From: a virus | Length of the DNA stretch: 64,000 bases | IMG/VR virus record: IMGVR_UViG_3300009509_000013 | Coordinates: 1-64,000 of that record | Reading direction: 5' to 3' (one strand) | Shown: positions 1 to 64,000 of the stretch, in pieces | Layout of the letters: every line of letters starts with the position of its first letter | Position numbering within the stretch: position 1 is the stretch's first letter | Position numbers and translations under genes: made by a program | The notes under the pieces: generated by a model | Databases searched by the model: none | The model's input: only the letters and a program-made list of their open reading frames with translations | Told to the model about the DNA's origin: nothing

Positions 1-1
1 T

Positions 2-508
2 TCAACCCGCCGGGTTTGCTTTGCCGTGAAGATAGCCGCGCTTCGCGTTGATCTCCGTCTTCCGCTTCATTTCTTCGAGCAAGTCGAAGCCGACCGTTTC
101 GGCAACCCGCCGACATTCTCGAAGCGCGATTTCGAGCGCCGTCCGAACGTCGTCGCGCTTTTCGTGTCGCCACGCTTCAACCGCCGCGCAAAGTTGCGAC
201 AAGATCGGCCAAACCAAACACTCGACCGCTTGAAAGCGCGTCGAACCTTTCCCGTATCCGTTCAACTTCCAATCGCCCGGCCAAATGCTTTCGAGCAAGT
301 GAAGCAACCGAATTGCCGTGTCAGCGATTTCAACTTCGAACGGATCTTCGCCGATCCCTTTCGCGCCTTGAACGCCTTCGTCGAGTTCCGTCACGGCGAG
401 CATGACCTTGACCGGAACGTCCGGGAAGCCCGGTCGAAGCCAACCGTTCGCGTCGTTCACTTCGTTGATTCGTTGCGCTAGTTCGTGCCAGTCTTGACGC
501 TCGTTCAT
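2..508 (-). CDS. MazG-like (all-alpha NTP pyrophosphohydrolase) protein
   Basis: MLAVTELDEGVQ...EVEIADTAIRL resembles the MazG ExxE...ExxD motif; typical phage C-terminus KTEINAKRGYLHGK; directly downstream of the helicase. Confidence 0.65.
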   Translation of the reverse strand: MNERQDWHELAQRINEVNDANGWLRPGFPDVPVKVMLAVTELDEGVQGAKGIGEDPFEVEIADTAIRLLHLLESIWPGDWKLNGYGKGSTRFQAVECLVWPILSQLCAAVEAWRHEKRDDVRTALEIALRECRRVAETVGFDLLEEMKRKTEINAKRGYLHGKANPAG

Positions 509-509
509 T

Positions 510-1901
510 TCAAAAACCTTCCCCTTCCCGTTCGGCTTGCCGAATCATCATTCGCGCTAGATCCGCGTCAAGCGGAATGATCTCTTTTGAATCTCCGTCG
601 CGATACTTCGCGACAAACAATTCGATCTTCCCGGTCTTGTATCGGGAAAATTCGTCTTCTTCTTTCACGTCTTCTTCTTCCGCGTCGTCGTCCGCGATCT
701 TCGTCGTCCGCGATTTCTTCTTCGGTTGATTCAACGTGATCACAAGGTCGGCGATTCGGCTTTTGTCGTATGATTCCGAAACGGCTTCCGCGCCGGCGGT
801 TCGCGTTTCCCATTCCCGCCCGGCTTGCGTTGCGCTCCAAACGACGACGCTTTCTTCTTCCGCGAGCGACTTCAATCCCCAATAGACGTTTGCTTGTTCA
901 AGCCGCGTCGATTCGAATTTGCCGATCCCGCGCATATGGTCGCCCGAATCCACAATGATAAAATCGACGTCCATTTCGGAACGGATTTCGTCAATCGTCG
1001 ACCGGAGAACGTTCACGTCGCAACGAAGCAACGGCATTGAAACGACCCGAAGCCGATTCGTGAACGTCTTTTTGAAACGTTGAAGCTTCGCTTCCATGTC
1101 GCGAAGCTCCGAAGGTGTGAAATCGAACGTCTTGAATTTCTTGTAAACGGTTTGAAACGCCCGCGCGTCGAGCCGGGTCGCGACTTGCTTCGCCGCCATT
1201 TCAAGCGAGAAATAGATTCCCCCGAAGCCGCGAGCCGCGCCGTTGAAGGCGAAGTTCGTCAACGTGATCGACTTCCCGCGCCCCGTCGTCCCGACAACAA
1301 GCCCAACTTCCCCCGGACGATTCCCGCCCGATTGAATTTCGTCAAGCCGCTTGATTCCGGTCGGGATCGCCTTCGTCAATTCCGGGTGTTCGCGTTCGTG
1401 TTTCCGCGTCGCTTGCCTTTCTTCGAATTGCTCGATCCATTTCACTTCGACATAAGACTTCGGCTTGAAGTCGTGCGTCGCGACCTTCCGCAATTCTTCG
1501 AACGCCCGGTCGACCTTCCCCTTTTCAAGCGCCGTCGCGCTCGATTCCATAGCCGTTTGAAGCGTGACCGCCCGAACGAATTCTTGAAGCTCCGCGAGCG
1601 CCGCCTTCGGCGTCTTCGGCTTCAAGTGCATAAGCCTTGAAGCAAGCTCCAAATAGGGTTGACGTTCGTCTTCGTCGTCGATTTCGCGCTTCAACCGCGC
1701 GAGAATGATCTTCGACGTGACGCGCTCGGAATAGTCGACCCAAGTTTTTTCGATCAAGCTCCAAATCCATCCGTGATGCTTTGTCGAAAAATGGTGTGAA
1801 CGGAGCAACCGGGAAGCGCTTCGAAGGTATTCGTCGGAGCGAAGACACGCCGCAAGAATTTGTTCTTCGAAGTCGACGTTGAAAATCGGTTGATCGTTCA
1901 T
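510..1901 (-). CDS. DnaB-like replicative helicase
   Basis: IPTGIKRLD, Walker A GTTGRGKS, FSLEM, Walker B IIVDSGD, SATQ, ADLVITL, VAKYRDG. Confidence 0.92.
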   Translation of the reverse strand: MNDQPIFNVDFEEQILAACLRSDEYLRSASRLLRSHHFSTKHHGWIWSLIEKTWVDYSERVTSKIILARLKREIDDEDERQPYLELASRLMHLKPKTPKAALAELQEFVRAVTLQTAMESSATALEKGKVDRAFEELRKVATHDFKPKSYVEVKWIEQFEERQATRKHEREHPELTKAIPTGIKRLDEIQSGGNRPGEVGLVVGTTGRGKSITLTNFAFNGAARGFGGIYFSLEMAAKQVATRLDARAFQTVYKKFKTFDFTPSELRDMEAKLQRFKKTFTNRLRVVSMPLLRCDVNVLRSTIDEIRSEMDVDFIIVDSGDHMRGIGKFESTRLEQANVYWGLKSLAEEESVVVWSATQAGREWETRTAGAEAVSESYDKSRIADLVITLNQPKKKSRTTKIADDDAEEEDVKEEDEFSRYKTGKIELFVAKYRDGDSKEIIPLDADLARMMIRQAEREGEGF

Positions 1902-1902
1902 G

Positions 1903-2613
1903 TCAAAATCCGAGATCTTGCTTCATGCGATCCCGGAGTTCTAGCCGGAAGTCGCCCGCGTCGAATTGAGCTTGCCGATATTTGCCGTCGAAGATCGAAG
2001 TCAACGTCGCTCCATAGACCTTTTTCAATTCTTCGCTTTCGGTGTTCGTCGCGATCAAGGTCGGAAGCGATTCGTCGAACCGCGTCTTCAAGATTCGTTC
2101 GATTTGAAGCCGAATCCAAGAATCCCCCTTTTTGAATTGTTCCTTTCCCATTTCGTCAATCGCGACGAAATCGCTTGTCAGATACCAATGAAGCCGGTCG
2201 GTCAATTCTTTGTCTTTGAAGCCGCGCTTCAATTCATAGTCGAGTTCGGGAAGCGACGTATAGAACGCCGTGAACCCGCGACGAATCACGCGCCCCAAAA
2301 CGTAAGAAATGAACATTGTCTTTCCGACGCCGTTGTCGCCAAGAAACAAAAGCCCGTAGCCTTTGACGCGAGCCCGCTTCAACTTCCGGCAATAGGGCAA
2401 GATCAATTCGGTGAAGATCTCGCAATTCCATTTGACGTCGGATTTCTTCGTGAACCAAAAGTCGCGCGGAATGCCGGCTTCATACGACGCGACCGAAATT
2501 TCGTGCTTCGTGTAGCAACCGCAATCGAGATTGTCGCCCTTGCATTCGCAAGCGTGAATCGTGTCCGCGCGAGACAAAAGGCGGAAGCGTTCAACTTCGT
2601 CTTCGGTTCTCAT
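1903..2613 (-). CDS. DnaC/IstB-like AAA+ helicase loader
   Basis: N-terminal Cys cluster, Walker A GDNGVGKT, Walker B AIDEMGKE, PTLIATN; immediately upstream of the helicase. Confidence 0.88.
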   Translation of the reverse strand: MRTEDEVERFRLLSRADTIHACECKGDNLDCGCYTKHEISVASYEAGIPRDFWFTKKSDVKWNCEIFTELILPYCRKLKRARVKGYGLLFLGDNGVGKTMFISYVLGRVIRRGFTAFYTSLPELDYELKRGFKDKELTDRLHWYLTSDFVAIDEMGKEQFKKGDSWIRLQIERILKTRFDESLPTLIATNTESEELKKVYGATLTSIFDGKYRQAQFDAGDFRLELRDRMKQDLGF

Positions 2614-3703
2614 GTTCCCCGCCTTTCTTCCGAAAAAGCTTGATCGCCCAATCGACCAACGGACGCAAGCGCGACGACACGAAAAGATCGCGACCGCCGG
2701 CGATTGCCTTCGCCGCGTTTTGAACCGTCATAAGTTCCCGGTCGCTCCAATCCCCGACGTCGTGACCCGCTTCAACCAATCCGCCGCGAAGCTCCGGGTG
2801 AAGCGCGTTCGTGTCCGCGTAACCGTGAAGCCCCGCCGCAACGTTGGAGCCTTTCGAATCTTCAATCTTCGCCGGGTCCGCCTTCGGCCCGTTCAACGAA
2901 TAGAACGAAGCCGCCGCGTCAATGTTCGCCGCCGCCGCGACGAAGTGAAGCGGAGCATAGCGAAGCCGGAATTTGTGAATGTGAGCCGCCCAATAGCGAA
3001 TCAATTGTTCCGGGGTGATTCCGCGTTCGAAGGCGAGAACCGCCCCTTGCGCCCCGAACTTTTCTTCGCTCCCGTGTAGCTTGAAATAGGGATCGTTGAT
3101 CTTGCGCCAACGGACATATTGACGAACGAACTCCGCGCCCATTCGCGCGACCAATTCCCGGCGGAACTTCGAGTTCGGCGACAAGTTCAAGAGTCGCCGC
3201 ATTTCCGCCTTGTCTTCCGGGGAAGGGGTGAAGATTTTCGACGACTTCAAATTTTCGAGATTCCCGATCTTGACCGCCCCGCGAGTTCGCCGCTTCTTCT
3301 TCGCGTCGGCTTTCCGTTTCTCCCGCGCCTTCGCGACCCGCTCGACCTTGACCTTCGCCCTTCCGGTTTTCTTTTCCGCTTTTTCCGTCTTGCCGTCTTC
3401 CCCGTCTATACGGCTTTGGTTCTCTAAAGACTTATGATCTATTACTCTATAAGAGGCGGTTCGCGATTCTTCCCCTTGAAGCGTCAAGAATTTCCGTTTC
3501 TTTCTTGGGTAACTTTTCGGAAATTCATTTTCGACACTCCCGCCCCGGTCAAAAATTCCGTTTTTTCCTTCAACCTTTCTTGCTCGTTTCGAACTCATTT
3601 TTCCCGAATCTCCGATCCCGGTCTTCGAGTTCTCGAAGAATTCGACCCGGTTCTTTCGGGAAAGTATTTCGAAACGAATGCTATTCTCCGACGTTTCATT
3701 CAT
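2591..3703 (-). CDS. putative replication initiator (basic, low-complexity N-terminal half)
   Basis: Position upstream of the loader and helicase; Lys/Arg-rich linker; AT-rich internal DNA. Called mainly by synteny. Confidence 0.45.
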   Translation of the reverse strand: MNETSENSIRFEILSRKNRVEFFENSKTGIGDSGKMSSKRARKVEGKNGIFDRGGSVENEFPKSYPRKKRKFLTLQGEESRTASYRVIDHKSLENQSRIDGEDGKTEKAEKKTGRAKVKVERVAKAREKRKADAKKKRRTRGAVKIGNLENLKSSKIFTPSPEDKAEMRRLLNLSPNSKFRRELVARMGAEFVRQYVRWRKINDPYFKLHGSEEKFGAQGAVLAFERGITPEQLIRYWAAHIHKFRLRYAPLHFVAAAANIDAAASFYSLNGPKADPAKIEDSKGSNVAAGLHGYADTNALHPELRGGLVEAGHDVGDWSDRELMTVQNAAKAIAGGRDLFVSSRLRPLVDWAIKLFRKKGGEHENRRRS

Positions 3704-3713
3704 TCCCCGCCTA

Positions 3714-4007
3714 TTATGAAAGCTTGATAAATCGATCCGTTCCTTTCAGGATCGCCCTACGTTTCAAGGTGATTTTTGCGCGTCTTCGGTCATTGTCCGC
3801 GCGCTCGACTCCGACGAAACCTTTTCGACGAAGCTCCCGAAAAACGTCGTTCGCGCTCGAAGTCGTTTTTCCAAGCGTCGACGCGATAGCCTTCCGCCCG
3901 GCGGAAAGCTCCGTTTCTGTCATGGCGTGAAGTCGAACCCAAACGGCGAACGCCGTCTTCGTCAATTCCCGATAGCCTTCCGGGATTGTGCAAGCGTCAA
4001 AAAGCAT
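3714..4007 (-). CDS. winged helix-turn-helix DNA-binding protein
   Basis: RKAIASTLGKTTSSANDVFRELRRKGFV is an HTH pattern; GGCGGGG RBS. Confidence 0.65.
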   Translation of the reverse strand: MLFDACTIPEGYRELTKTAFAVWVRLHAMTETELSAGRKAIASTLGKTTSSANDVFRELRRKGFVGVERADNDRRRAKITLKRRAILKGTDRFIKLS

Positions 4008-4093
4008 TTTCCCCGCCTTTGACGAAAGAGCGCGCCGGCGAGCCGCCGGCGGGGAACCAAGCGACGACGCCGACGCGCCCCTTCAAGGTTCCG

Positions 4094-4122
4094 GTTGTAC
4101 GGTTGCCCGTTCCCTTCGTCAA
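4094..4122 (-). promoter_or_regulatory. sigma70-like promoter for the replication operon
   Basis: TTGACG-N17-TACAAC on the minus strand, in the intergenic gap upstream of the HTH gene. Confidence 0.55.
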
Positions 4123-4124
4123 GT

Positions 4125-5612
4125 TCATTCGACAACCCTTATTTGAAAAGCGACTTCTTCGCGATACGTCTTCAACCGTTCGCGCGAATGCTTCGCGAAG
4201 TAGCCGTTCGTTTGATCCATGAAGTCGACGAAGATCGCTTCGGTCTTCCCGTCATGCGGCGTCAAGCAACGCATTCGTTGAACCGTCGCCTTCACGTCGC
4301 GACCGCCTTCCGCGTTGATCACGGCGTCAATTTCGGGAATGTCGATCCCTTCCCCGAAGACGGTTCCGATCAACGCTTGAAGCGACCCGTCGACGAACGC
4401 CTTCACAAGCCGCTTTCGAGCGTCCGCCTTGTCGTCGCCCGTGATTACTCCCGCCCGAACGCCGCGTCGCCCCAAAGACTCTTGAAGCAAGCCCGCTTGT
4501 TCCTTTCGGTTCGTGACGATCAACGTCTTCAAGCCACGTTCGATCAAGTCCGTCGCGATTGAAGTGATTTTCGTATTCCGCCAATCGTTGAAGTGAATCG
4601 CTTGATCGACAAGCTCGCCGCTCCAATCTTCGTCGTCGAGCCCTTCCGGTTCCGTCACGCGATAAAGCCGAATGTCCGGTCGCATCAAATAGCCTTCGTC
4701 GATCAACCGGGAAGGCGACACGGAAAAGACAACCTTCCCCGTGCAAGCGCGCAACCAAATCACGCCCCTTTCTTGTTGGCGTGTTCGATCAAAATAGACC
4801 GTCGCCGACAACCCGATCTTGAACCGAGAATCAAAGTCGAGAACGATTGACCGCCATTGCTCCGCGCGCAAATGGTGACATTCGTCGAAGATCACGCAAT
4901 CGAACGCGACGCGCAAAGCCGAATAGCGCGGGTCTTGCGGAACCGTGATCGTCTTCTTCTTCCCGTTGACCGTCTTCGTTCGCTTGCCGCCGAACGCGCG
5001 CGTCAACGTTTGAACCGAAGCGACCGTGACGTCGCGTTCGATCCATTCCGAATCGCCGACGATTCCGATTTCGTCGAGCTTCCGGTCGAACGACTCCGCG
5101 AGCGAAGCCCGCGTTTGATGCAAAAGCATTTGTGAAGGGACAATGAAAAGCGTTCGCGCCTTCAACCGATAGATCACGCCCGCCGCCGTCTTCGTCTTCC
5201 CGGAGCGGATCGGCATATGCAAGATCCCGGAGCCGCGAGCTTCCCCGCGAGCTTCGTCAAGCAACGCTTCAACCGCTTCGACTTGATAGCCGCGAAGCTC
5301 GACCTTCGGATTCCAAGCGAGCTTGATCGCCTTTCCCGGTCGCCGGCGAGCCGAAGCGTCGAGCTTCCATTCGACGCCTTGCTCGCGAAGCACGTCGAGA
5401 ACGTCTTCGAACATGCCGGTCGGAACGCGATAGCCCGCGCTCGACTTGTACGTCAACAAGTGTTCTTTGCCGTCCCAACGCTTCGCGCGGAACGCCGGCG
5501 TGAAATGCGCGCCGGCGACCTTGTATGAAGTCACTTCGTCGATTGCCGCCGTCAAGCGACGGTCGAGCCCGCGAAGTCGAATGAAACGGTTGTCGAGTTC
5601 AAGAGAAATCAT
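4125..5612 (-). CDS. superfamily 2 DExH-box helicase
   Basis: LRGYQ Q-motif, PIRSGKT, DECHH, GLSAT, GEGIDIP, QRMRCLT. Confidence 0.9.
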   Translation of the reverse strand: MISLELDNRFIRLRGLDRRLTAAIDEVTSYKVAGAHFTPAFRAKRWDGKEHLLTYKSSAGYRVPTGMFEDVLDVLREQGVEWKLDASARRRPGKAIKLAWNPKVELRGYQVEAVEALLDEARGEARGSGILHMPIRSGKTKTAAGVIYRLKARTLFIVPSQMLLHQTRASLAESFDRKLDEIGIVGDSEWIERDVTVASVQTLTRAFGGKRTKTVNGKKKTITVPQDPRYSALRVAFDCVIFDECHHLRAEQWRSIVLDFDSRFKIGLSATVYFDRTRQQERGVIWLRACTGKVVFSVSPSRLIDEGYLMRPDIRLYRVTEPEGLDDEDWSGELVDQAIHFNDWRNTKITSIATDLIERGLKTLIVTNRKEQAGLLQESLGRRGVRAGVITGDDKADARKRLVKAFVDGSLQALIGTVFGEGIDIPEIDAVINAEGGRDVKATVQRMRCLTPHDGKTEAIFVDFMDQTNGYFAKHSRERLKTYREEVAFQIRVVE

Positions 5613-5663
5613 AGCTCCCCGTTATATGCCGCCGGGGAGCAAAACGTTGACAGTTTTTTGACT

Positions 5664-5933
5664 CTATTTTTCGCCGCTCGGTTCGTCGGCTTTGCCGTTG
5701 CGTTTCCGCCGGAGCCGTTGCCGGAATCGTTGAAGCTCCGAAACGTGTTCGTCGATCCCGTCGTAAACCTCTTTGCTTTGCGCGTCCGCCGCTTCAACCG
5801 CCGTCAATTTTTCGTCGTCTTTGACGACCGCCGCAAGCTCCGCGTTGTGCGCCCGCTCCGGCCAAGGTTTCTTTTCGCCGTCCAAGTCGTCGGCTTGAAT
5901 CGCTAGAGCGCGTGAACGGAAGATTCCGAACAT
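5664..5933 (-). CDS. hypothetical protein
   Basis: ORF fills the gap, has an AAGGCGG RBS and genome-typical codon usage. Confidence 0.55.
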   Translation of the reverse strand: MFGIFRSRALAIQADDLDGEKKPWPERAHNAELAAVVKDDEKLTAVEAADAQSKEVYDGIDEHVSELQRFRQRLRRKRNGKADEPSGEK

Positions 5934-5945
5934 TGCCGCCGCCTT

Positions 5946-6164
5946 TCATTCGTCATGGTCAAGGGAATCGTGAAGCTCTTTGATCGTCGCTTGAAGTTCG
6001 GAAGCGAGCGAATGATATTTCTCCGCCGTCTTCGACGATTTTTCAAGCAAGCGATCATAGAGCGCCGTCACTTGCCGATCTTTCTTGTATGCTACGAAGA
6101 CGGCGATTGCCGTCACAAGTCCAAGTAACCCTTGCCCGGCAAGGTCCGTGATCAACGCTTCCAT
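5946..6164 (-). CDS. holin-like single-TM protein
   Basis: Likely start MEALITDLAGQGLLGLVTAIAVFVAY (one TM helix) followed by a coiled coil; lies in the lysis region. Confidence 0.5.
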   Translation of the reverse strand: MEALITDLAGQGLLGLVTAIAVFVAYKKDRQVTALYDRLLEKSSKTAEKYHSLASELQATIKELHDSLDHDE

Positions 6165-6186
6165 TTCTTTCGACCATGCGCCTTCC

Positions 6187-6594
6187 CTACCGGGTGACTT
6201 GGGAACCGGCATAAATCGCGCCAACGGTTATCGCGACGCCGATCCCAATCCCAAGCCAACGATTGAAGCCCGGCGATTCATACCACGGCGGCGGCTTCGT
6301 CGCTTCTTCGAGCCTCGCACGATAGACTTGTTCAATATTGTGCATTTCTCTAGTCCGAATGTCTAGTTTTCCCCGCAATTCTTCAACCGCGAGTTCGGCT
6401 TTCAAGAATGCTTTGAAGCGATCTTCGGGAACAAGAATCCCGGAGAAAGGCGCGGGTTTTCCTTCCAAAACGACGACGACTTTCCCGGAATTCGCTTCGA
6501 CCGTTTTCGGAGCTTCGGCGGCTTCGTCGGCGAGCGCCGGCGACGCGAAAGACGCCGCAAAGACGAAAACGATTCCAACCGCGAGCGCCTTCAT
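6187..6594 (-). CDS. spanin-like secreted or membrane protein
   Basis: Signal peptide MKALAVGIVFVFAASFASPALA, coiled coil, C-terminal TM; ATGA overlap with the upstream gene. Confidence 0.45.
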   Translation of the reverse strand: MKALAVGIVFVFAASFASPALADEAAEAPKTVEANSGKVVVVLEGKPAPFSGILVPEDRFKAFLKAELAVEELRGKLDIRTREMHNIEQVYRARLEEATKPPPWYESPGFNRWLGIGIGVAITVGAIYAGSQVTR

Positions 6595-6908
6595 GACTGC
6601 CCCGAACGGTTGGCGAATTCGGCGAGCGCTTGAAGACGCTTTTCTTCGTCGGAGATCTTTTCGATCTCCGCGAACTCGCGTTCGTTCGCTTCCATCTTTG
6701 CGGCGTGTGTTTCGAGTTCCTTCGCGGCGGCTTCGTGAATCTTGCCGGCGTCGTCTTTGGCTTTCTGCAAAAGCTCCGGCTTCCCCTTCGGCGTCGGGAG
6801 CAATCGCGACACAACGAAGATCGCGATTGCAAGCCCTAGCACGATCCAAAGCCAATAGCGTTTGAGCCAAGCGCCCGGCGGATTCGGAACGACGACAAGA
6901 TCGGCCAT
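6591..6908 (-). CDS. i-spanin-like membrane protein
   Basis: N-terminal TM (WLWIVLGLAIAIFVV) followed by a charged helical region; lysis cassette. Confidence 0.5.
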   Translation of the reverse strand: MADLVVVPNPPGAWLKRYWLWIVLGLAIAIFVVSRLLPTPKGKPELLQKAKDDAGKIHEAAAKELETHAAKMEANEREFAEIEKISDEEKRLQALAEFANRSGQS

Positions 6909-7123
6909 TAGCTGATCCCTTCGTCGCTTTTCAAAGCTGTCGTTTCGTCGGCGACGAAGGTTTCAACCGTCTTCGTCAAGGTCGGCGATTCAAGTTCCCG
7001 CGTGACGACTTTCTTCAAGTCGGCGTCGTCGGTCGAGCCGACGATCCCTTGAAAAAATACCGTGTAGGGTCCGCCTTCCGGCCCGCGAACGATCAACTCG
7101 ACTTGATTCAATTGCTTTGCCAT
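6908..7123 (-). CDS. hypothetical protein
   Basis: GGCGGGAG RBS; stop overlaps the next start. Confidence 0.6.
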   Translation of the reverse strand: MAKQLNQVELIVRGPEGGPYTVFFQGIVGSTDDADLKKVVTRELESPTLTKTVETFVADETTALKSDEGIS

Positions 7124-7138
7124 GTCTCCCGCCTTTCG

Positions 7139-7750
7139 TTAGCCTTCCGCCTTCGGCTTCGGCCCGAATGAAAGTTTTCCGGTGATCGCTTCATGCGCGC
7201 CCGTCGAACCGAGCCCCGCGAGCAATCCCGCGACGACCGCGTTCAAGACGTTCGCGCCGGTTTGGTAAGTCGACAAGCCCATGATCAAAGCTCCAAGCGC
7301 CATTGCGACCCAAGGCTTCAACCATTTCTTGTCATGCTGAATCAACCAAACGTCGATAGGCTTGAAGCGCAAAAGCCCCATTAGGAAATTGAGCAACGCG
7401 ATCAACCCGGCGAGCCAACCAAGGGTTTTCCAATCGTTGACCGTCTTTCCGAGCCCTTCAAGCAATTCGCCGGCGGTCGTTTCTTCGCCTTCGACCGAAT
7501 CGGTTGAAGCGGCGTCCGACGTTGGAGCCGCGACGCCCTCAGAAGCCCTAGAATCGACGGGAGCGGCTTCGCCCTTGTCCGACCCTTCGGGAGTCGTCGG
7601 AGCGCCCGCCACGGCGACCGGAGCCGCCGGAGCCGTCGTTTCTGCGACCGTTGCCGGTTGCGCCGGCTCGTTTTGCGCGTGAATTTCCGACAATGGGAAA
7701 AGAATTGCGACGATCCCCGCCGCGAGAATGATTCGCTTCAACCGTTCCAT
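7139..7750 (-). CDS. holin-like multi-TM protein with signal peptide and Ala/Pro/Thr linker
   Basis: Signal peptide, low-complexity linker, three hydrophobic segments ending GLLAGLGSTGAHE; GGAGG RBS. Confidence 0.55.
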   Translation of the reverse strand: MERLKRIILAAGIVAILFPLSEIHAQNEPAQPATVAETTAPAAPVAVAGAPTTPEGSDKGEAAPVDSRASEGVAAPTSDAASTDSVEGEETTAGELLEGLGKTVNDWKTLGWLAGLIALLNFLMGLLRFKPIDVWLIQHDKKWLKPWVAMALGALIMGLSTYQTGANVLNAVVAGLLAGLGSTGAHEAITGKLSFGPKPKAEG

Positions 7751-7799
7751 TTTCTAGCCTCCGTGACTAAAAGTTTGTGTTTCCTTCCGCTTCAACCGT

Positions 7800-8087
7800 T
7801 CAAGCGTGCTCCGACATGAAGCACGTTTGCGCCCGCGCCCAATGCCAAACAACCTTGTCGCCTTGCTTGCAATGCGGACAAACCGGATCGCCTTCGTTCG
7901 TTTCGACCCAAAACTTCCGGGGTCGTCGTTCCCCCGGCTTCCCCGGAATTTTGATCGTGCAACGCGAGCATTCCCCCTGATAGAGCCCATTCGCGACGAA
8001 CGAAGCGACTCCGCCGTTTTCGTCGTCCGGGATTCTCAAGACGTCGGGAACCCGGCGAAGCCGGCTTATGACGGGTTTCTTCGACAT
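7800..8087 (-). CDS. small zinc-ribbon protein
   Basis: CSRC and CPHC pairs. Confidence 0.5.
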   Translation of the reverse strand: MSKKPVISRLRRVPDVLRIPDDENGGVASFVANGLYQGECSRCTIKIPGKPGERRPRKFWVETNEGDPVCPHCKQGDKVVWHWARAQTCFMSEHA

Positions 8088-8113
8088 GCCCCTTCACTTC
8101 CCTTCCCCCGTGA

Positions 8114-8803
8114 TCAATACGCCCGGCAATATTGAAAGTGCATGTCGTCGCGTGTCCGCCAACGTCCGCCCCATTCAAAGCCAAAACGTTCGAAAGACTC
8201 TACAATTTCGGGGTGAAGATTTCCAATTTTGCCAACCGGATTCGTCGCCCAATTGAGATCGCAAGCAATCGCCCAAGAATGCGACGAAAGCCCGCGCTTC
8301 GGGTTGTGCATCTTGTGACGCGGCGACCAAATGCCGAATTGAACGATCTCGCCGTCGAGCCCCTTGTCGGCGATCTCCGTCAAGACCGCTTCGAAGACGG
8401 GAACCATTTTCCCGTGAACCATATGTGTTCCGACGACCGGAAGGTTCGCCCGAACAATGTGATTCTTCGCCCAATCGTTGACGATCTCGACCGCCCCGGC
8501 TTCCGCTTCAACGAATTCAATCTTCCCGAACGTCGCTTCGATTTGTTCCAAGCCGACCGGAACGGGGAACAAAAGGTTCGCTTCAACCGCCGCATATGCC
8601 GCGAGCGCTCGGTCGAGCGCCTTGTCGGTCGCGTCGTCGACAATCCCGTCGACGAAGTGCCTTTGTTGAAACGCGACGACCGCCGCCTTCGTGTTTCGTC
8701 CGAAGTCGCCGTCAATTGCGCCGGCGTAAAATCCGAGCGCCTTCAAGCGGTCTTGAACCGCTTTGACGTCTTCCCCTTTGCTTCCCGTTCGGATCGTGAC
8801 CAT
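8114..8803 (-). CDS. endolysin: peptidoglycan-binding domain plus M15-family peptidase
   Basis: GSKGEDVKAVQ..DGDFG..TKAAVVAFQ..VDGIV (PG-binding); SSHSWAIACD and WGGRW..DDMHFQ (M15). Start taken at MVTIRTG. Confidence 0.9.
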   Translation of the reverse strand: MVTIRTGSKGEDVKAVQDRLKALGFYAGAIDGDFGRNTKAAVVAFQQRHFVDGIVDDATDKALDRALAAYAAVEANLLFPVPVGLEQIEATFGKIEFVEAEAGAVEIVNDWAKNHIVRANLPVVGTHMVHGKMVPVFEAVLTEIADKGLDGEIVQFGIWSPRHKMHNPKRGLSSHSWAIACDLNWATNPVGKIGNLHPEIVESFERFGFEWGGRWRTRDDMHFQYCRAY

Positions 8804-8819
8804 TGGAGCCCCCTTCGCT

Positions 8820-9227
8820 TCAACCGGCTTCCGCGCCGGCTTCGGGTTGTTTTGGTTCTTCGGCGCTTGCTCGTTTCTTCGGCGTCGCCGCTTTGCGTCG
8901 AGAATCTTCCGCAGAAATGAGCAAAGTTGCATAGCCCTTCAACTCCCCCGCAAGTTGTTGTTGTTGCGTTCTCCCTTGTTCAAGCCGTTGCGCCATTTCT
9001 TGAACGGCTTGACCGACTTGTTGCGATTGATGCGACGTCGCTCGAAACTTTTTGGCAACGTCGGCTTCCATGCCGGCGAGCTTGACTTCGTTCCTTGCGA
9101 CCGACGCGAGATAAGCGTTCACTTCGTCGTCGGTCATGGAAATTTCGAACGGAGCGCCTTCACTTGGGATCGCCGCCGCCGTTGTTCCGTTCCCCTTCGC
9201 CTTCGTTGTCTTCTTTCTAGGTGCCAT
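8820..9227 (-). CDS. hypothetical coiled-coil protein
   Basis: GGAG RBS before MAPRKK; heptad-like Gln-rich core. Confidence 0.55.
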   Translation of the reverse strand: MAPRKKTTKAKGNGTTAAAIPSEGAPFEISMTDDEVNAYLASVARNEVKLAGMEADVAKKFRATSHQSQQVGQAVQEMAQRLEQGRTQQQQLAGELKGYATLLISAEDSRRKAATPKKRASAEEPKQPEAGAEAG

Positions 9228-9310
9228 TTTCTTGTTCTCCCTTGTGCCGCCGTTTGTTGCGGCCAATTAGGTTTGAAGGGATCGCACTATCACGATCCCG
9301 GCTTCATTGC

Positions 9311-9499
9311 CTATTCCGGTTTCGGACGCTTCGGTTTTTTGCGCGGTCGTTTTTCAGGAACGCGCCGTTGAAGTTGTCCGCAATTGGCGCATTTCGCCAA
9401 ATAGGGATCTTTCGAGTCCGGCGTCAATTGATTGACGCCGCAAGTTTGACAAACAACGTCGTCGCGAAACTTTTTGTCCTTCCAAGGTTTTCTAGCCAT
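9311..9499 (-). CDS. small basic zinc-ribbon protein
   Basis: MARKPWKD..CQTC..CANC with a Lys/Arg-rich tail; GGGG RBS. Confidence 0.55.
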   Translation of the reverse strand: MARKPWKDKKFRDDVVCQTCGVNQLTPDSKDPYLAKCANCGQLQRRVPEKRPRKKPKRPKPE

Positions 9500-9513
9500 T
9501 GCCGTTCCCCTTC

Positions 9514-9888
9514 CTAGAATGCGAGCAAATCGCCAATTTCTCCGGCCATTCGCGAATCGGTCGCTTGAATCTTTTCCAAAATCACGCGCGGAACCGCTTC
9601 GCCGTAGCACTCGCCCGCCAATGTTTCCGCGTTGCAAACGTCGTAATAGTCTTGCTCGACAAGTCGATACGTTCGCGCGGGAATGAGTCGGCAAACCTGC
9701 CATTCGTCGTCAACGTCGATATAGCCAACGCGAATCGTCACGTTGATCGCCGCGTTTTTCAAATCATGATTGTACGCTTCGATCCGCGCGAACGGCATTG
9801 GCGAATTCGGGTCCAATTCCCCAACGTTGAAATCAGTGTCGAGACTGATTCCAACCATTGTATCCATCAAGCCTTTGTCTATCGTCAT
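9514..9888 (-). CDS. tail-fibre partner or assembly protein (paralogue of 13914-14228)
   Basis: Follows the fibre gene; similar by eye to the gene that follows the other fibre. Confidence 0.55.
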   Translation of the reverse strand: MTIDKGLMDTMVGISLDTDFNVGELDPNSPMPFARIEAYNHDLKNAAINVTIRVGYIDVDDEWQVCRLIPARTYRLVEQDYYDVCNAETLAGECYGEAVPRVILEKIQATDSRMAGEIGDLLAF

Positions 9889-35690: not shown

Positions 35691-36077
35691 TCAAAGAACG
35701 CCGGTCCAAATTCCGCCGGCGGATTTCTCGACAAGCGCCTTCGTGACTTCAACGCCGGTTTCAATGTCGACGAATCCGCGCTTCACTTCGCGCGGTTCCG
35801 CGAACTTGAATTCGTCGTCGCCCTTGCGAACGAAGTCGCATTTGAAAAGACGATAATTCACTTCGTCGTCTTTTTGCGTCGGAACGTACACTTCCGCGAT
35901 CACGCTTTTCGAGAAAACTTCAATCGGCCAAACCGAGCCATTCTTCGCGACATTCATTTTCGGCAAAAGATAGCCGGCGAGCGACTTCCGAAGCTTTTGC
36001 ATGAATTCGCCGACCGACTCTTTTTCTCCGAGCGGAAGGTTCGCTTTGTGAACTAGAACTTCGCGTGTTTCTGTCAT
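35691..36077 (-). CDS. hypothetical protein with a scaffold-like C-terminal motif
   Basis: GGGG RBS; ends VEKSAGGIWTGVL. Confidence 0.65.
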   Translation of the reverse strand: MTETREVLVHKANLPLGEKESVGEFMQKLRKSLAGYLLPKMNVAKNGSVWPIEVFSKSVIAEVYVPTQKDDEVNYRLFKCDFVRKGDDEFKFAEPREVKRGFVDIETGVEVTKALVEKSAGGIWTGVL

Positions 36078-44077: not shown

Positions 44078-44091
44078 TTCCTAACCTCCAT

Positions 44092-44445
44092 TCAAGCCGG
44101 ATCGAACCGACGCTTGCCAATTCGCCGAAGCGAAACACGCGCGGCGCGTTGCTCCCGGTGAACCATAATGATTGCACGAATATCGCCCGCAAAGCACGTT
44201 ATTCGCTCCCCGCCCTTCACTTTGCTTGCGGGATCGGGATCGATTATTTCGGGAAGATAAGAAACGCGGTCGAAGCCTTGCGGCTTGGGAAGGGAATATT
44301 GAACGCCGCTTTCCGTGACTGTGAATCCTGAAATCCGGGCTTGAAACTCCGGGTCTTTCAACTTTCGCAGCCATTCTTGCGCTTGCTCATGATCTGAAAG
44401 ATCGATCCGTGAAGTCAATCCGTCGCATGTATGCACCTTGAACAT
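44092..44445 (-). CDS. hypothetical protein
   Basis: GAGGGGAG RBS; fills the gap. Confidence 0.55.
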   Translation of the reverse strand: MFKVHTCDGLTSRIDLSDHEQAQEWLRKLKDPEFQARISGFTVTESGVQYSLPKPQGFDRVSYLPEIIDPDPASKVKGGERITCFAGDIRAIIMVHREQRAARVSLRRIGKRRFDPA

Positions 44446-44495
44446 GCGGCTCCCCTCTTGAGCAATGCGCCAAGCGAAGGTTGTCGCGTTGTTCG

Positions 44496-53741: not shown

Positions 53742-53751
53742 GGTCAACCCC

Positions 53752-55221
53752 TTACATAATGCCCGGTTCTTCGCGCCGTCGCTTTTTGCGTTTCAACTTG
53801 CTCGCCGTGATCGCCAAGTCGAGCGCGTCGAAGCCGTCTTTGTAGCGAAAATTAGGAAACAAAACCAACAAGTCGATCAAGTCGGTCAAGTTCTTTCGGA
53901 AGAAAACGCGCTTGTCTTCAAACATTGGCGACAATTTCCAAGCGCGCGTCACCTTGTCTTTGTCCGTGTGAATCGCCTTCAACCGAAGATTTTTGTCGCC
54001 GTCTTTCAAGTGCTGATATTGCGCGGCTTGGTAAGCGTTCGTTTCAATGCCGCAACGGATCGGGTCGTGCCTTCGATAGAACTCTTTGATCTTTCGCGTT
54101 TGATCGTTGAAGCGAAGGTGTCCTTCGAAGTAATCGATCACATAATGATCTTCGGTCTTCGTGTCGATTCCGACGACCGCAATCGCGAACTTGTCGGCTT
54201 TCTCGCTTTCCGAAATCGCCAAGTCAACGCCCATGAACACGCGAAGCCCGCCGGGGATCTCCGAATCGTCGACCTTTTGACAGTCGTCATATTGGAAGAT
54301 CTCGCCCTTCATTGCTTCGGTGTCGCATTGGTATTGAGCGTTGAAAATGATCGTTCCCGACTTGCGCTTCTTTTCCTTGAACCACTTCGGCGGATATTTG
54401 TCCGGCCAAGGCGAACGCCCGTCTTCGTCAAGCGCGGGAATGATTTGATGATGATCGGCGAGTTCGTTCGCGATCAAATGCCCATAGAGATCGTCGAAGT
54501 GATAGCGCGTTCCTAGCCTATGGTGTTCCCCTCTATGCGGAACCGACTTGTCCGGCGGTTCAAGGCAAGGGTCGAGCGTTTGATAATACCATTGACGAAC
54601 GCGGTCGCGCATGTATTTCGTCCGCGTGTTGTCTTCGTCAACCAAGTCGTCGGAAAGGATCACGTCGTAATGTTTGCCGACGACGGCGGCTTCAACGCCG
54701 ATGCAAGTGATCGTTGATTCTTTCGAATACTTCGTTCGGGGAGCGACTTCGATTTCGCGGTTGTCCCATTTTCCGACCTTGTGCGGATCGTAATACTCGC
54801 CGAAAAGTTCCGCGAAGCGTTCGTTCCCTTCAAGGTGTCCTTTGATTTCTTTTAGGAACGCTTCGCTTTGCGCGCTCGTTTTGCTCGCGATCAAAATCCG
54901 AATGTTCGGATCTTTCGCGAGCAAATGAAGCGACTTCGTGATCGTGCAAACGGTCGACTTCCCCGCGCCACGAAACACAAGTTGAAGGTTGTCCGGGTGA
55001 ATGAATTGATAGCGAAGCAACGCCAAATGAAACGGTTCGATTTGATAGTCGAGAACCGCCGTCGCGAGAATGTCGATCCGGTTGTGATCGATGATCATTC
55101 GCCGGAGCCATTCGTTCCCCATTGCCCGATAGTGTCGGGCGAGATCTAGCAATTGCCCGCGATCCGCTTCTTCAATCGCTTTCGGCGAGCCTTGCAAAAT
55201 TGGGAAAACGGAACTCGACAT
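53752..55221 (-). CDS. terminase large subunit
   Basis: FRGAGKST, DDLVD, GTRYHFDDLYG, FNAQYQ, GVDLAIS, DGFDAL. Confidence 0.93.
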   Translation of the reverse strand: MSSSVFPILQGSPKAIEEADRGQLLDLARHYRAMGNEWLRRMIIDHNRIDILATAVLDYQIEPFHLALLRYQFIHPDNLQLVFRGAGKSTVCTITKSLHLLAKDPNIRILIASKTSAQSEAFLKEIKGHLEGNERFAELFGEYYDPHKVGKWDNREIEVAPRTKYSKESTITCIGVEAAVVGKHYDVILSDDLVDEDNTRTKYMRDRVRQWYYQTLDPCLEPPDKSVPHRGEHHRLGTRYHFDDLYGHLIANELADHHQIIPALDEDGRSPWPDKYPPKWFKEKKRKSGTIIFNAQYQCDTEAMKGEIFQYDDCQKVDDSEIPGGLRVFMGVDLAISESEKADKFAIAVVGIDTKTEDHYVIDYFEGHLRFNDQTRKIKEFYRRHDPIRCGIETNAYQAAQYQHLKDGDKNLRLKAIHTDKDKVTRAWKLSPMFEDKRVFFRKNLTDLIDLLVLFPNFRYKDGFDALDLAITASKLKRKKRRREEPGIM

Positions 55222-55226
55222 TCGCT

Positions 55227-55448
55227 TCAATGCTCCCCACCAAAACACGCATGATCAAGAAATTGAAACGCCGCGAAGATTTGTTCGGCTTCGGCTTGCG
55301 AGCGCGCCGCAATTTCAACCGACCCGCTTTCTTCGTCGGCGATCAACGCTTCGCGCCCGTCAACAAAGAATCGGTGAACTTTGCCTTCCGGTTGCGCGCC
55401 TTGATCGTAAACGAGAACGACGTTCGGACTATCGCTTTTCGACGTCAT
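55227..55448 (-). CDS. hypothetical protein
   Basis: Fills the gap with genome-typical codon usage. Confidence 0.45.
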   Translation of the reverse strand: MTSKSDSPNVVLVYDQGAQPEGKVHRFFVDGREALIADEESGSVEIAARSQAEAEQIFAAFQFLDHACFGGEH

Positions 55449-55803: not shown

Positions 55804-56169
55804 TTACCGCTCCCAATCTTCGGACGTGAAACCGTTTGAACCCAACCGTTCCCGCGCCCAAGTGAAAACGACTTCGGGGTCGAAGTCGCGACAAGAGAAC
55901 ACGTCAAGTTTGACTTCACGGCGAAGCGGCCAAGCGTGAATTGCAACGTGTGACGTCGACAAAATCGCGCAAGCCGTCACGCCGCCTTCGTCTTCGAACG
56001 GTTCCCTTCCGAGCTTTTCAATTTCTAGCGGAACCGAAACGCTCAAAGTTCCGAGCGTCGTCATTCCGAGCGCTTCAACCAAATCGCAAACGGCGATCTT
56101 CATTCCGGCTTCGTCGTTCACTTTCGCCGGGTCGCAATCGCCGTCAAAAACAAGGTGTCTCCCGCTCAT
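55804..56169 (-). CDS. speD: S-adenosylmethionine decarboxylase family proenzyme
   Basis: GRHLVFD, GGVT..ILSTSHVAIHAWP, LDVFSC (pyruvoyl-dependent AdoMetDC signatures). Confidence 0.85.
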   Translation of the reverse strand: MSGRHLVFDGDCDPAKVNDEAGMKIAVCDLVEALGMTTLGTLSVSVPLEIEKLGREPFEDEGGVTACAILSTSHVAIHAWPLRREVKLDVFSCRDFDPEVVFTWARERLGSNGFTSEDWER

Positions 56170-57951: not shown

Positions 57952-58671
57952 CTAGGCGACGCGCAAAAGCGAACGTTCAACGCCCTTCGATTGTGCCTTC
58001 GCGCGCCTTCGCGCGTCAAGCTTTTTCAAGCAACGTTCGGCTTTTGTTTCGTATTCGTCGCGCCGCTTTTCTGTCGGCGAACAACCCGCCGCCGCCAACC
58101 AATGCCCGGCGGCTTCCGAATAGCGAAGCTCCGCTTCGGCGTCGCGCGCGAGCTTCGCCCAATACGCCGGCGAACGTTGCTCCGCTTCGGAGCGCCGCTT
58201 TCGTTCGTAATAGTCAACCTTCGCTTGCCATTTCGACAATTGAGTTCGAAGCCGCTTGATCTTCGTCGTCAATTCTTTGACCTTCGCCTTCGCCTTGCGT
58301 TCCCGACCTTCCGACGCGAGCGCCGCGCGCTCCGCCTTCGACTTCGGTTGAAGCGGAACCTTCCGGCGAAGCTCGATCCCGTCGACTTCAACCGCCATGA
58401 TCCAAGGGTTTTCGGGAGCCGCGTCGCGACCGCCGGCGACGAACGCGCAACCCCAAGCGAGCGCTTGCGCGACCTTCGTCACGTCGACCGCGCCCTTCGG
58501 GATTCTCAGGCGAATTGACGACCGCCCCGCCCTAACTGTCGGGTGACTTTGCCGCGCGCCCGTGACCGTCAACGTCGCGCGCGTGACGCCCCATTCGCGA
58601 GCGATCCGCGTGAACAAGCTTCGGAGATCGCGCCCGTTCAAGTCGGTCTTGTTCTCGATTGCGAGCTTCAT
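57952..58671 (-). CDS. hypothetical early protein (basic, coiled coil)
   Basis: AGGCGGGG RBS; ATGA overlap with the receiver gene. Confidence 0.6.
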   Translation of the reverse strand: MKLAIENKTDLNGRDLRSLFTRIAREWGVTRATLTVTGARQSHPTVRAGRSSIRLRIPKGAVDVTKVAQALAWGCAFVAGGRDAAPENPWIMAVEVDGIELRRKVPLQPKSKAERAALASEGRERKAKAKVKELTTKIKRLRTQLSKWQAKVDYYERKRRSEAEQRSPAYWAKLARDAEAELRYSEAAGHWLAAAGCSPTEKRRDEYETKAERCLKKLDARRRAKAQSKGVERSLLRVA

Positions 58672-59006
58672 TTTTCCCCGCCTTTCGGTTGAAGCGCGGC
58701 TTCAATCGCCGCGCGAAGTGTCGTTCGACTTGCCGGCTTGCTCAAAATGGCGACCGCGCCAATCGGTTGAAGCGCCATTGACCCGGAGTGAATGACAACC
58801 GGAACCGGCGATTCTTCGAGAACGCGAGCCCCGCCGCCGTTCGGCATGACCCAATCGGAAACGACGACCGCCGCTTCGGAGTAAAGCGCCGCCGCTTCAA
58901 CCGGGTCGCTCGCCGTCACGACGTCGAAGCCTTCCCGCCGAAGCTCGCGCTCGACCGCCTTCAAGATCTCCGGCGTGTCGTCGACAATCAAAATCTTCGT
59001 GTTCAT
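58668..59006 (-). CDS. single-domain response regulator (CheY-like receiver)
   Basis: KILIVDD, VSDWVMP (phospho-acceptor Asp), IHSG, LSKP. Confidence 0.88.
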   Translation of the reverse strand: MNTKILIVDDTPEILKAVERELRREGFDVVTASDPVEAAALYSEAAVVVSDWVMPNGGGARVLEESPVPVVIHSGSMALQPIGAVAILSKPASRTTLRAAIEAALQPKGGEK

Positions 59007-61300: not shown

Positions 61301-61615
61301 TTACTTGTTCACCATGCGATAGATCGTTTCGTTCAAGTTCTCGACGAAGACGCCGTTCGCCGACTCGACGACTTTCATTTCGTAGGTTCGGCGATTGAAG
61401 CGAACGAACTCGACGTCGTAAAGGTCGAGCGCTCGGTCGAGCTTGACGACGATCTTCGTCAACTTCGAACGACCGACGACGAAGTGAAGACCGTCTTCGC
61501 CCGCGACCGCTTGACGCGCTCCGCAAGCCATTTTTGTTCCGACCGTGATTTGACTCCAAATGATTTGACCCGCGTTCATGGTTTCCGTTCCTTTCGTTGT
61601 GTCCGTGTTCTTCAT
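61301..61615 (-). CDS. hypothetical early protein
   Basis: Starts MKNT after promoter copy 3; DLYDVEF motif. Confidence 0.65.
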   Translation of the reverse strand: MKNTDTTKGTETMNAGQIIWSQITVGTKMACGARQAVAGEDGLHFVVGRSKLTKIVVKLDRALDLYDVEFVRFNRRTYEMKVVESANGVFVENLNETIYRMVNK

Positions 61616-61703: not shown

Positions 61704-61734
61704 AGAGCCAAAACAGAGCCAAAACAGAGCCAAA
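61704..61734 (+). repeat. tandem 11-bp repeat AGAGCCAAAAC, about 3 copies
   Basis: Read directly from the sequence. Confidence 0.85.
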
Positions 61735-61893
61735 TTTCGTCAATAATTACGCCTAGTTGTGAACGACGCCCTAGAATGCCCTAGAATCGACGCAACGAAG
61801 CCCGCCCTTGTCCGCGCCCGTGCGACCCCTGAAACGCGCTTGACGCCCCGGAATTCGCGCCCCTATGCCCAAAATTGAGCCCTTCCGCCGGCG

Positions 61894-62678: not shown

Positions 62679-62690
62679 TGCGTTTCCGAC

Positions 62691-63305
62691 CTAGTAAAGC
62701 GCCTTGACCGCTTCGAGCAACCGGCGAGCCGTCACGACGTCGCCCGCGTCGATTGCCGCTTCAACGCGCGCGTGAAGCAAGTTCCGAGCGTCGGCGATTG
62801 CGTCGTTCGTCATGGGGATCGAAAGAACGTTCGCGGCTTCGGCGACCGGCTCCGCTTCAACCGTCGCGGCTTCGACGATTGCTTCGGCGGAGATCACAAC
62901 CGCCGGAGCCGCGCGGAGCGCTTCAAGTTGCGCGTCGGCGGCTTCGCGAACCGAAACATGCTTATAGAAATCAACGTCGAAATAGTCGGTCATTGAATCG
63001 GAGTCGTCGCGATTGTAGGCTTCGACGATCCCGGCGATCTTGTCTTCGGTTTCCTTCCAAGCGTCGAGCGCTTCCCAATCCCGCCCATATTCGTCGTTAG
63101 TGTCGCGAAGCGTGACGAATTGAACCGGAGCTTCTTTGACGTCGACGGAAAGGCTTTGGCCCATGCTGTAACGGGAAATCCGAACGCCGAACTTCCAACC
63201 CTTGCCGAAAGCGGCTTTCAAGTCGGCGCGAACTTTCTTCGCGACGTCTTTCAAGTCTTGCCCGTTCTCGAATTTGCTTCCAATGTATCCGCGTCCGTAA
63301 CTCAT
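62691..63305 (-). CDS. LPD29-like (polyvalent-protein associated) domain protein
   Basis: VRADLKAAF..KFGVR..YSMG.SL.V and YNRDDSDSMTDYFDVDFY; start MSYGRG. Confidence 0.6.
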   Translation of the reverse strand: MSYGRGYIGSKFENGQDLKDVAKKVRADLKAAFGKGWKFGVRISRYSMGQSLSVDVKEAPVQFVTLRDTNDEYGRDWEALDAWKETEDKIAGIVEAYNRDDSDSMTDYFDVDFYKHVSVREAADAQLEALRAAPAVVISAEAIVEAATVEAEPVAEAANVLSIPMTNDAIADARNLLHARVEAAIDAGDVVTARRLLEAVKALY

Positions 63306-63332
63306 GATCTCCGCCTTTCTTGTTGTGTTCCG

Positions 63333-63421
63333 TTCTATACTCTTTGTCTCATAAATCGGTTGAAGCGTCAAGCAAAAACGACAAGAAAAATTGAAAAAAC
63401 GACATGAATTTTTCAAATATT
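63333..63421 (-). promoter_or_regulatory. repeated early promoter, copy 5, with AT-rich upstream tract
   Basis: TTGACG CTTCAACCGATTTATGA GACAAA GAGTATAGAA. Confidence 0.65.
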
Positions 63422-63620
63422 CGGATTCATTGAAGATTTTCTTCAAAAAAAATTGCTTTTTTGGGGTCGATTTTTCTGAAATTAGGCTTCGACGGAGCCC
63501 CGGAACGGAGAAACCGGAGCCCCGTCGAGCCCGAACGGAACGGAACGAAGTCGATTCGTTGACCCGGCGAGCCCCGCCGGGAGCCGCCGGCGGTTAGCGC
63601 CGGCGGCTTTCGTCGTCGGT

Positions 63621-64000
63621 TCAAGCGGCTTCGGGAATCACGAACGCGCCTTTCGGCCCGATTCCTTCGACGCCGGGGAAGTAAGCCTTCAAGACTGCCC
63701 AAAGATTCCCCTTGTAAGCCGCCGGGAACGTGTTCAACTTGGCTTGTTTGTCCCAACGTCGACCGGGAACCCGGCGGAGCGCGGCGACAAAGCCTTCGAA
63801 GTCTTCGTCGGTCGGCTTGGCGCGGAGCCCGATCCGGTCGCCTTCGAGTTCGACGATCTCGACCGGGCGAACGCGCTTCACGATCCGGTCGGCGAGCTTG
63901 TCGCAACCAAGCGCGCGGAGCGCGGCGACGCCTTCGACGACCGCGATCCCGGTCTGTTCAAGCGCGATTGCGTAAACGATCCGATTCGCTTCGGCGCGCT
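63621..64000 (-). CDS. partial hypothetical protein (HARP-like C-terminal motif)
   Basis: Frame is open to the window edge; FVAALRRVPGRRWDKQAKLNTFP. Confidence 0.5.
   Translation of the reverse strand, partial: RAEANRIVYAIALEQTGIAVVEGVAALRALGCDKLADRIVKRVRPVEIVELEGDRIGLRAKPTDEDFEGFVAALRRVPGRRWDKQAKLNTFPAAYKGNLWAVLKAYFPGVEGIGPKGAFVIPEAA

Follow-up and report, generated by a model that had tools for sequence, protein, structure and literature searches.

Near-complete loss of the trinucleotide CAG/CTG from an uncultured marine-sediment phage, probably through selection on double-stranded DNA

Restriction-site avoidance in virulent double-stranded DNA (dsDNA) phages has been documented by Rusinov et al. 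2018 (PMC6286503), and the phenomenon is usually discussed for sites of 4–8 bp. Shorter sites are known from chlorella viruses, whose nicking enzymes include Nt.CviPII (^CCD) and Nt.CviQII (R^AG), both with 3-bp sites (PMC3017599), and from HNH nickases of phages and prophages, whose sites span 3–7 bp, such as N.BceSVIII (S^RT) (PMC3592412). The DNA considered here belongs to a tailed phage from a marine sediment metagenome. It comprises positions 1 to 64,000 of the IMG/VR virus record IMGVR_UViG_3300009509_000013, called the window below; the record is one contig of 74,285 bp, classed as linear, and the window begins at its first base. This phage has lost nearly all copies of the trinucleotide CAG and of its reverse complement CTG, together written CWG in what follows.

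The window contains 124 CWG sites (46 CAG and 78 CTG) against 2182 expected from base composition, and the whole contig contains 138 against about 2530, a raw ratio (M0) of 0.054. A first-order Markov expectation, which already takes up the CpG excess (1.81) and the TpA deficit (0.26) of this DNA, still predicts 1064 sites in the contig, giving a dinucleotide-normalised ratio (M1) of 0.13 with z = -28; under this model CAG/CTG is the most under-represented 3-mer. An earlier inspection of the letters alone, referred to here as the sequence-only reading, had counted two sites in the first 2100 nt and judged that the depletion held across the window. Exactly two CAG (322 and 489) and no CTG occur in that interval, and the loss is indeed even, with 0–9 sites per 2-kb bin throughout the contig. 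Early and late genes are affected alike, as the structural module (9901–53747) is as strongly purged as the early genes and the replication and lysis region (1–9888) likewise. The same reading had called the phage GC-rich, a richness that is moderate, at 55.6% GC. The terminase gene (53752–55248) illustrates the effect: it retains two CWG in total, with CTG at 0 of 43 Leu codons and CAG at 1 of 17 Gln codons, compared with a median of 49 CWG in the large terminase (TerL) genes of 33 relatives of similar composition (GC 0.52–0.60), where CTG provides a third of Leu codons and CAG 72% of Gln codons.

The sequence represents a real, recurrent and nearly clonal uncultured phage, because near-identical contigs recur across studies. 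About nine studies of marine sediment, mangrove and soil yielded metagenomes with near-identical DNA, and the contigs from four of these studies differ from the phage contig by a handful of bases. Across those four studies, seven single-nucleotide polymorphisms are usable and none creates a CWG, a number too small to carry meaning in a phage that is nearly clonal. CheckV places the completeness of the contig at about 73%, with about 27% of the genome outside it, and complete genomes of relatives measure 95–114 kb and carry direct terminal repeats, so that roughly a quarter of the phage genome lies beyond the contig.

The loss of CAG/CTG reflects selection on double-stranded DNA and not codon or tRNA bias, since it occurs in all three codon phases and in intergenic DNA and since off-frame counts fall below a synonymous-codon shuffle. 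On the sense strand, CAG occurs 26, 30 and 14 times in codon phases 1, 2 and 3 (400, 374 and 323 expected), CTG occurs 13, 22 and 5 times (353, 389 and 208 expected), and intergenic DNA holds 29 CAG/CTG where 315 are expected. The shuffle preserves the proteins and the phage's own, already purged codon usage, which makes it a conservative null, and even so it predicts 685 off-frame CWG where 71 are found. Codon usage itself is as the sequence-only reading described it, with Leu encoded by CTT (586), TTG (615) and CTC (352) but scarcely by CTG (13), and Gln by CAA (639) with few CAG (26). That reading had proposed strong selection and had named confinement of the loss to in-frame codons as the sign of mere codon bias; instead, the two other phases and intergenic DNA show just as strong a depletion, and the loss persists under Markov and codon-shuffle controls alike. 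On the off-frame and intergenic counts, codon or tRNA bias is rejected as the cause.

The choice of neighbouring codons shows how the word is kept out. Among the NCN codons for Ser, Pro, Thr and Ala, NCA and NCT account for 15% and 14% before codons that do not begin with G, and for 1% each before those that do. Ahead of TGN codons (Cys and Trp), the preceding codon ends in C four times and in T 340 times, the opposite of the overall preference for C (7121) over T (3855) endings. A second strong codon-pair rule concerns NCC, which makes up 36% of NCN codons before G-starting codons and only 6% before others; this fits an avoidance of words containing CCA or CCT, such as CCAC, CCTC and CCAG.

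These counts also bear on a cause at the level of RNA or translation, such as a lack of the tRNAs for CUG and CAG, or cleavage of mRNA by a toxin that recognises either triplet. Messenger RNA interferases with 3-nt specificity are known, MazF cutting at ACA, and with all genes on one strand the whole genome is probably transcribed in one sense. The depletion, however, is equally strong off frame and in intergenic DNA, and the sense strand loses both CAG and CUG, which would require two RNA specificities but corresponds to one DNA word. Other avoided asymmetric words, described below, are likewise gone in both orientations, and for this reason avoidance at the mRNA level was rejected. An explanation of this kind is extremely improbable.

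The 138 CWG sites that survive in the contig share no common motif. Four of them cluster at 44319–44396 (minus strand), in the intergenic gap between called genes at 44078–44495. About seven lie at codons 2–3 immediately after a start codon, either as ATG ACA G (36071–36073 on the minus strand, with the same pattern at 3917 and 67814) or as ATG GCA G (31437, 45254 and 66650), and at these start-proximal positions some other constraint appears to outweigh avoidance. Two further rare CTG are held by a short intergenic tandem repeat, TTTTGGCTCTG / TTTGGCTCTG, at 61714–61735.

The avoided word is the three-base core CAG/CTG itself. All 16 NCAGN contexts are depleted in the contig, with ratios of 0.000–0.215, and the sixteen contexts of control triplets reach ratios above 2, in agreement with the earlier suggestion that a whole 3-mer is avoided. 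Every 4- and 5-bp extension of the core is depleted as well, which is not the pattern of an orthodox, usually palindromic Type II target of 4–8 bp. The very short target put forward in the sequence-only reading would correspond to a 3-bp core, depleted in all contexts. The degenerate CWG form proposed with it is unnecessary: each of CAG and CTG is the reverse complement of the other, so that avoiding a single asymmetric 3-mer on the two strands removes both. The flanks nevertheless set the degree of the purge: the CWG ratio is 0.01 with G or C on both sides, 0.05 with mixed flanks and 0.13 with A or T on both sides, so that G/C-flanked sites are purged about ten times harder than A/T-flanked ones. 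CCAG/CTGG, for example, occurs 8 times against 695 expected.

This gradient is what would be expected if a stack of ordinary, longer host restriction–modification sites containing CWG (such as CCWGG, GCWGC, CTGCAG, CAGCTG, and Type IIS CTGGAG, CTGAAG and GCAGC) removed most copies and codon-usage drift away from CTG and CAG did the remainder. Dozens of sites are clearly avoided by the phage, CCWGG occurs 0 times and GCWGC 8 times against 394 expected for each, CTGCAG, CAGCTG, CTGGAG, CTGAAG and CAGCAG have no copies at all, and the stack accounts for the excess loss next to G and C. It fits poorly with the depletion of all 16 five-base contexts, among which ACAGA (0.215) and TCAGA (0.119) match no common site. 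Codon drift is also insufficient, since off-frame A/T-flanked CWG lies 3.4–4.5-fold below a conservative shuffle null that already uses the purged codon usage. Complete cover of a single triplet would further need at least four asymmetric 4-mer specificities that tile exactly, and relatives with heavily purged palindromes keep normal CWG. Taken together, a stack of longer sites is an unlikely source of the whole pattern.

CAG/CTG is the shortest member of a very large word purge and not the lone oddity for which it had been taken: 41 of the 64 six-bp palindromes are absent, and several 4- and 5-mers are purged too. Among the 37 palindromes expected at least five times under a trinucleotide model, 18 have zero copies, compared with 6% of comparable non-palindromic hexamers, and the remaining palindromes occur at about their expected counts (TTCGAA 130, TCGCGA 152 and GTCGAC 116, for example). 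The missing ones include CGATCG (about 87–113 expected), CGGCCG, CCGCGG, ACGCGT, TCCGGA, GGCGCC, ACCGGT, CCCGGG, GGATCC, GAGCTC and CTCGAG. Loss of this all-or-none kind is classically associated with restriction-site avoidance (PMC6286503), and its extent in this phage is unusually large. GGCC, TTAA and GTAC stand at 0.01–0.12 of expectation, and on the sense strand both orientations of the asymmetric words CATC/GATG, CCTC/GAGG, CCAC/GTGG, GAGAC/GTCTC and CTCTTC/GAAGAG have been lost, with counts well under those of the shuffle null (for example CATC 28 against 240, CCTC 3 against 165). Because both orientations disappear although all genes lie on one strand, the pressure acts on dsDNA and not on mRNA. 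The loss of CWG was also considered as a by-product of the palindrome purge, which was rejected because relatives L074 and L050 have many zero-count palindromes and CWG ratios of 1.36–1.41.

Some words are over-represented 2.4–3.6-fold in the same DNA, namely GATC (675 against 279), TCGA (1005 against 279) and CGCG (1167 against 437), and CGATCG is absent. CpG as a whole stands at 1.81 times expectation. This excess may be partly a by-product of the purges, since NCG codons are the 'safe' choice before G-starting codons.

Comparison with relatives drew on more than 1200 terminase homologues, the closest at 62–76% identity, and on about 160 related loci taken from viral, genome and metagenome collections. 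Raw CWG ratios of the related loci lie between 0.21 and 1.43 (median about 0.9), against 0.054 in this phage; after dinucleotide normalisation, 98 distinct related loci range from 0.34 to 1.57 with a median of 0.93, against 0.13. The phage is the extreme among them by either measure. Within these collections there is no closer relative above about 70% TerL identity over a usable length and none with CWG below 0.21, and the phage (labelled G000) stands alone on a long branch of the terminase tree. Partly purged relatives fall in at least three separate TerL clades, represented by L054/L023/L025 (CWG 0.21–0.29), L052/L067 (0.36–0.46) and L014 (0.45). All contexts are affected in these relatives, and the L054/L023/L025 clade shows the same flank gradient. 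The pressure is thus a recurrent one that does not come down with the phage family. The set of zero-count palindromes is private to each relative.

The three IMG/VR relatives of that clade, L054, L023 and L025, use a very different and equally extreme word dialect. GATC is enriched 4.5–4.8-fold and CTCGAG, GAGCTC, CGATCG and CGGCCG 6–9-fold, and TCCGGA, CCATGG, CTCTTC and TTAA are absent. In addition, some terminases of the phage family (homologues P0038, P0058 and P0091 in relatives) are about 820–850 amino acids long and contain homing-endonuclease and intein domains (PF14528, PF05204, PF05203), which suggests that inteins are inserted in some relatives' TerL.

The wider range of cellular and viral composition allows an inherited bias to be weighed, in which the host is itself poor in CAG/CTG and rich in CpG and the phage mirrors it, through context-specific mutation or repair or through methylation-driven deamination of CWG. 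CWG does fall as CpG excess rises in cells and phages. In 20-kb samples from each of 60 genomes across the Myxococcota, 54–55 of them long enough, raw CWG spans 0.43–1.62 and declines with CpG excess (r = -0.61, 55 samples), and this phage has the highest CpG excess, 1.81. A relative integrated in a Myxococcota chromosome, L002, matches the CWG level of its host, and the transition products CAA/TTG are raised 1.57-fold when pooled against a maximal-order Markov model, with TAG at 2.09-fold and CTA at 0.89-fold on the plus strand. Once dinucleotides are normalised, however, cells show no CWG-specific deficit, with ratios of 0.76–1.35 (median 0.96) in 54 Myxococcota genomes and normal values of 0.94–1.16 in two planctomycete plasmids, against 0.13 in the phage. 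Leu CTG is replaced by CTT and CTC, which are transversions, as often as by TTG, and both the precise codon-pair switching and the all-or-none palindromes are signatures of selection. To our knowledge, moreover, no bacterium of about 55% GC is nearly without CTG and CAG codons. An inherited bias is accordingly improbable.

A hunch that the host is a planctomycete gains no support from the two plasmids (M1 0.94–1.16). The 37-kb plasmid pPLIM01 of Planctopirus limnophila (L164; NC_014149) looks like a phage-plasmid, given that its annotation lists terminase, portal, capsid, tape measure, integrases, ParB and Gam.

The enzyme content of the phage bears on how it might tolerate its own environment of cutting activities. 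Six-frame searches of the 74-kb contig (about 73% of the genome) returned no C5, N4/N6, D12 or N6 methyltransferases (PF00145, PF01555, PF02086, PF02384), no HNH nucleases (PF01844, PF14279) and no integrase or resolvase, and Pfam and PHROGs revealed no other recognisable nuclease family there. These absences fit a non-temperate phage that relies on site absence. The sequence-only reading had suggested that the genome is kept compatible with a nuclease or modifier of the phage's own that attacks host DNA at this motif, and had pointed to the rest of the genome as the place to look. With the search extended to the remainder of the contig, no nuclease, nickase or methylase appears in the 74 kb, about a quarter of the genome being outside it, and the suggestion finds no support.

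Spelled out, self-avoidance would mean that a phage nuclease or nickase, encoded in the unseen quarter or among unannotated open reading frames, degrades host DNA at CAG/CTG and spares the site-free phage DNA. Viral 3-bp nickases exist (PMC3017599, PMC3592412), many early open reading frames have no family assignment, and the contig is incomplete; the empty HNH and nuclease searches just described stand on the other side. One gene, at 61301–61615, is the only gene exclusively common to the phage and to the purged L054/L023/L025 clade. It was rejected as linked to CWG because a homologue recurs in a 168-kb phage with normal CWG. Self-avoidance would also leave dozens of other purged words unexplained, and it is quite improbable. 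A trade-off with phage-encoded methylases was considered as well and gave no clear pattern among 21 long relatives: L023 (CWG 0.27) is without a methylase, and so are L029 and L050, whose CWG exceeds 1.

The purge is therefore real, resides in the DNA, does not depend on context and is kept up through codon-pair choice, and selection of the restriction-avoidance type on phage DNA is very likely responsible. Natural selection acting on double-stranded DNA would strip CAG/CTG from the phage, which most likely escapes host DNA-cutting defences by lacking their targets, a route favoured because the 74 kb encode no DNA methyltransferase. The agent directed at CAG/CTG would be a nuclease or nickase encoded by the host, or another DNA-reading defence, with an effective recognition core of the three base pairs CAG/CTG and best activity where G or C flanks them. 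Three parts of this picture are inferred: the role of the agent as a defence nuclease, its host origin, and the action of one reader instead of several. Three observations favour a single reader: no context escapes depletion, other lineages show the same context-general loss, and nickases with 3-bp sites are established biochemically. The complete statement, in which one host reader has a CAG/CTG core and prefers G/C flanks, is given a probability of roughly 0.5. A broader proposal is more tentative and falls somewhat short of even odds: marine-sediment bacteria may carry an uncharacterised DNA-targeting defence with a 3-bp CAG/CTG core, strong enough that one phage shed about 95% of some 2500 sites and that 50–80% disappeared in three or more other lineages of the family.

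Several points weigh against a single host reader. The flank gradient (0.01/0.05/0.13) could partly reflect several overlapping longer sites. The integrated relative L002, found within a 2-Mb chromosome contig that belongs to a Myxococcota metagenome-assembled genome, forms with it the one verifiable phage–host pair in the family; its CWG ratio is 0.78 against 0.75–0.79 in the host chromosome, so phages of this family can possibly just mirror the CWG level of their hosts. No cognate host enzyme can be named for the present phage, and about 27% of the genome is outside the contig. Nor is any restriction enzyme or methylase that reads bare CAG/CTG or CWG known to us from prokaryotes; a literature search, with no REBASE query, found only CCWGG-type entries. 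The DarT readers of single-stranded DNA were considered as the agent and set aside, as they read other motifs or none.

The remaining genome organisation is that of a tailed phage with all 83 confident genes, as judged by a codon-usage model, on the minus strand; the gene calls are our own approximations. Pfam identifies the large terminase (53752–55248, minus strand, Terminase_6C/6N), the portal (51942–53747) and the tape measure (27058–29655), as well as a MuF-like protein, an XkdF-type protease fusion and a tail fibre with an S74 chaperone domain. The structural module of tail fibres, tape measure, capsid, protease, MuF and portal covers 9901–53747 on the minus strand. Replication and lysis genes occupy 1–9888 on the same strand according to Pfam and PHROGs, with a DnaB-like helicase (510–1901), a DnaC-like loader (1903–2613), a UvsW/ResIII helicase (4125–5612) and an M15 endolysin (8114–8932), all on the minus strand. 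A DNA ligase was also identified, among others, and no tRNA genes were found in the 64-kb window.

Several further genes, all on the minus strand, stand out. Just upstream of the terminase genes, a pyruvoyl-type S-adenosylmethionine (SAM) decarboxylase-like gene (55804–56169; Pfam AdoMet_dc, E 3e-19) has mostly viral look-alike clusters and a homologue in only 3 of about 100 related loci; one may speculate that its product lowers SAM and so blunts SAM-dependent restriction or methylation. A stand-alone, CheY-like response-regulator receiver domain (58668–59006; Pfam E 3e-11) lies among the early genes. A MazG-like pyrophosphatase (window 2–508, a PHROG match) and a nucleoside 2-deoxyribosyltransferase-like protein (contig 66643–67092; DUF7768, phrog_355) suggest manipulation of the nucleotide pool, and no base-modification pathway was recognised among the phage genes. 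The contig carries 69 copies of the 9-mer CTTCAACCG, 40 on the plus and 29 on the minus strand, where fewer than one copy is expected; 66 of them lie in the window.

Restriction avoidance is well known, and what is new here is the near-total purge of a 3-bp word for which no prokaryotic enzyme is known to us. In such a purge the phage gives up two major codons and accepts limits on thousands of codon pairs, and a strong, lasting pressure must therefore lie behind it. A single reader, if it exists, would belong to a specificity class so far undescribed among prokaryotic defence or DNA-processing activities, and could be useful as an ultra-frequent cutter or nickase. The phage itself provides a natural 74-kb DNA that is nearly free of CAG/CTG and poor in restriction sites, and thus a clean substrate for finding such an activity.

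Among described enzymes, those of the EcoRII/Dcm type (CCWGG) and the TseI/ApeKI type (GCWGC) place G or C on either side of a CWG core, and it is precisely these contexts that have suffered the heaviest purge here, but they cannot explain the 5- to 20-fold loss of A/T-flanked and mixed contexts. The 3-bp nickases demonstrate that words of 3 bp can be recognised and cut by a protein. Since these enzymes have asymmetric sites, a phage avoiding such a site on both strands would lose each word together with its complement, which is what is observed. Unlike the agent proposed here, however, neither Nt.CviPII, Nt.CviQII nor the HNH nickases read CAG/CTG, and all are encoded by viruses or prophages and have not been shown to act as host defences. 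No homologue of an Nt.CviPII/Nt.CviQII-type nickase was found in the 74 kb, and chlorella viruses protect their own DNA by methylation, unlike self-avoidance through site absence. The closest parallel is the avoidance reported in PMC6286503, in which words are likewise removed from the DNA by synonymous and codon-pair choice and palindromes are lost in an all-or-none manner. The effect there is strongest in phages without an integrase or methylases of their own, and neither was found in the 74 kb of this phage; there, as here, it is specific to lineage or host and not to phage family. The present case departs from that report in scale: the sites described there are mostly orthodox 4–8-bp Type II sites, whereas this phage has purged an unusually large number of words, including a 3-bp word with about 2500 expected copies that has been brought down to about 5%.

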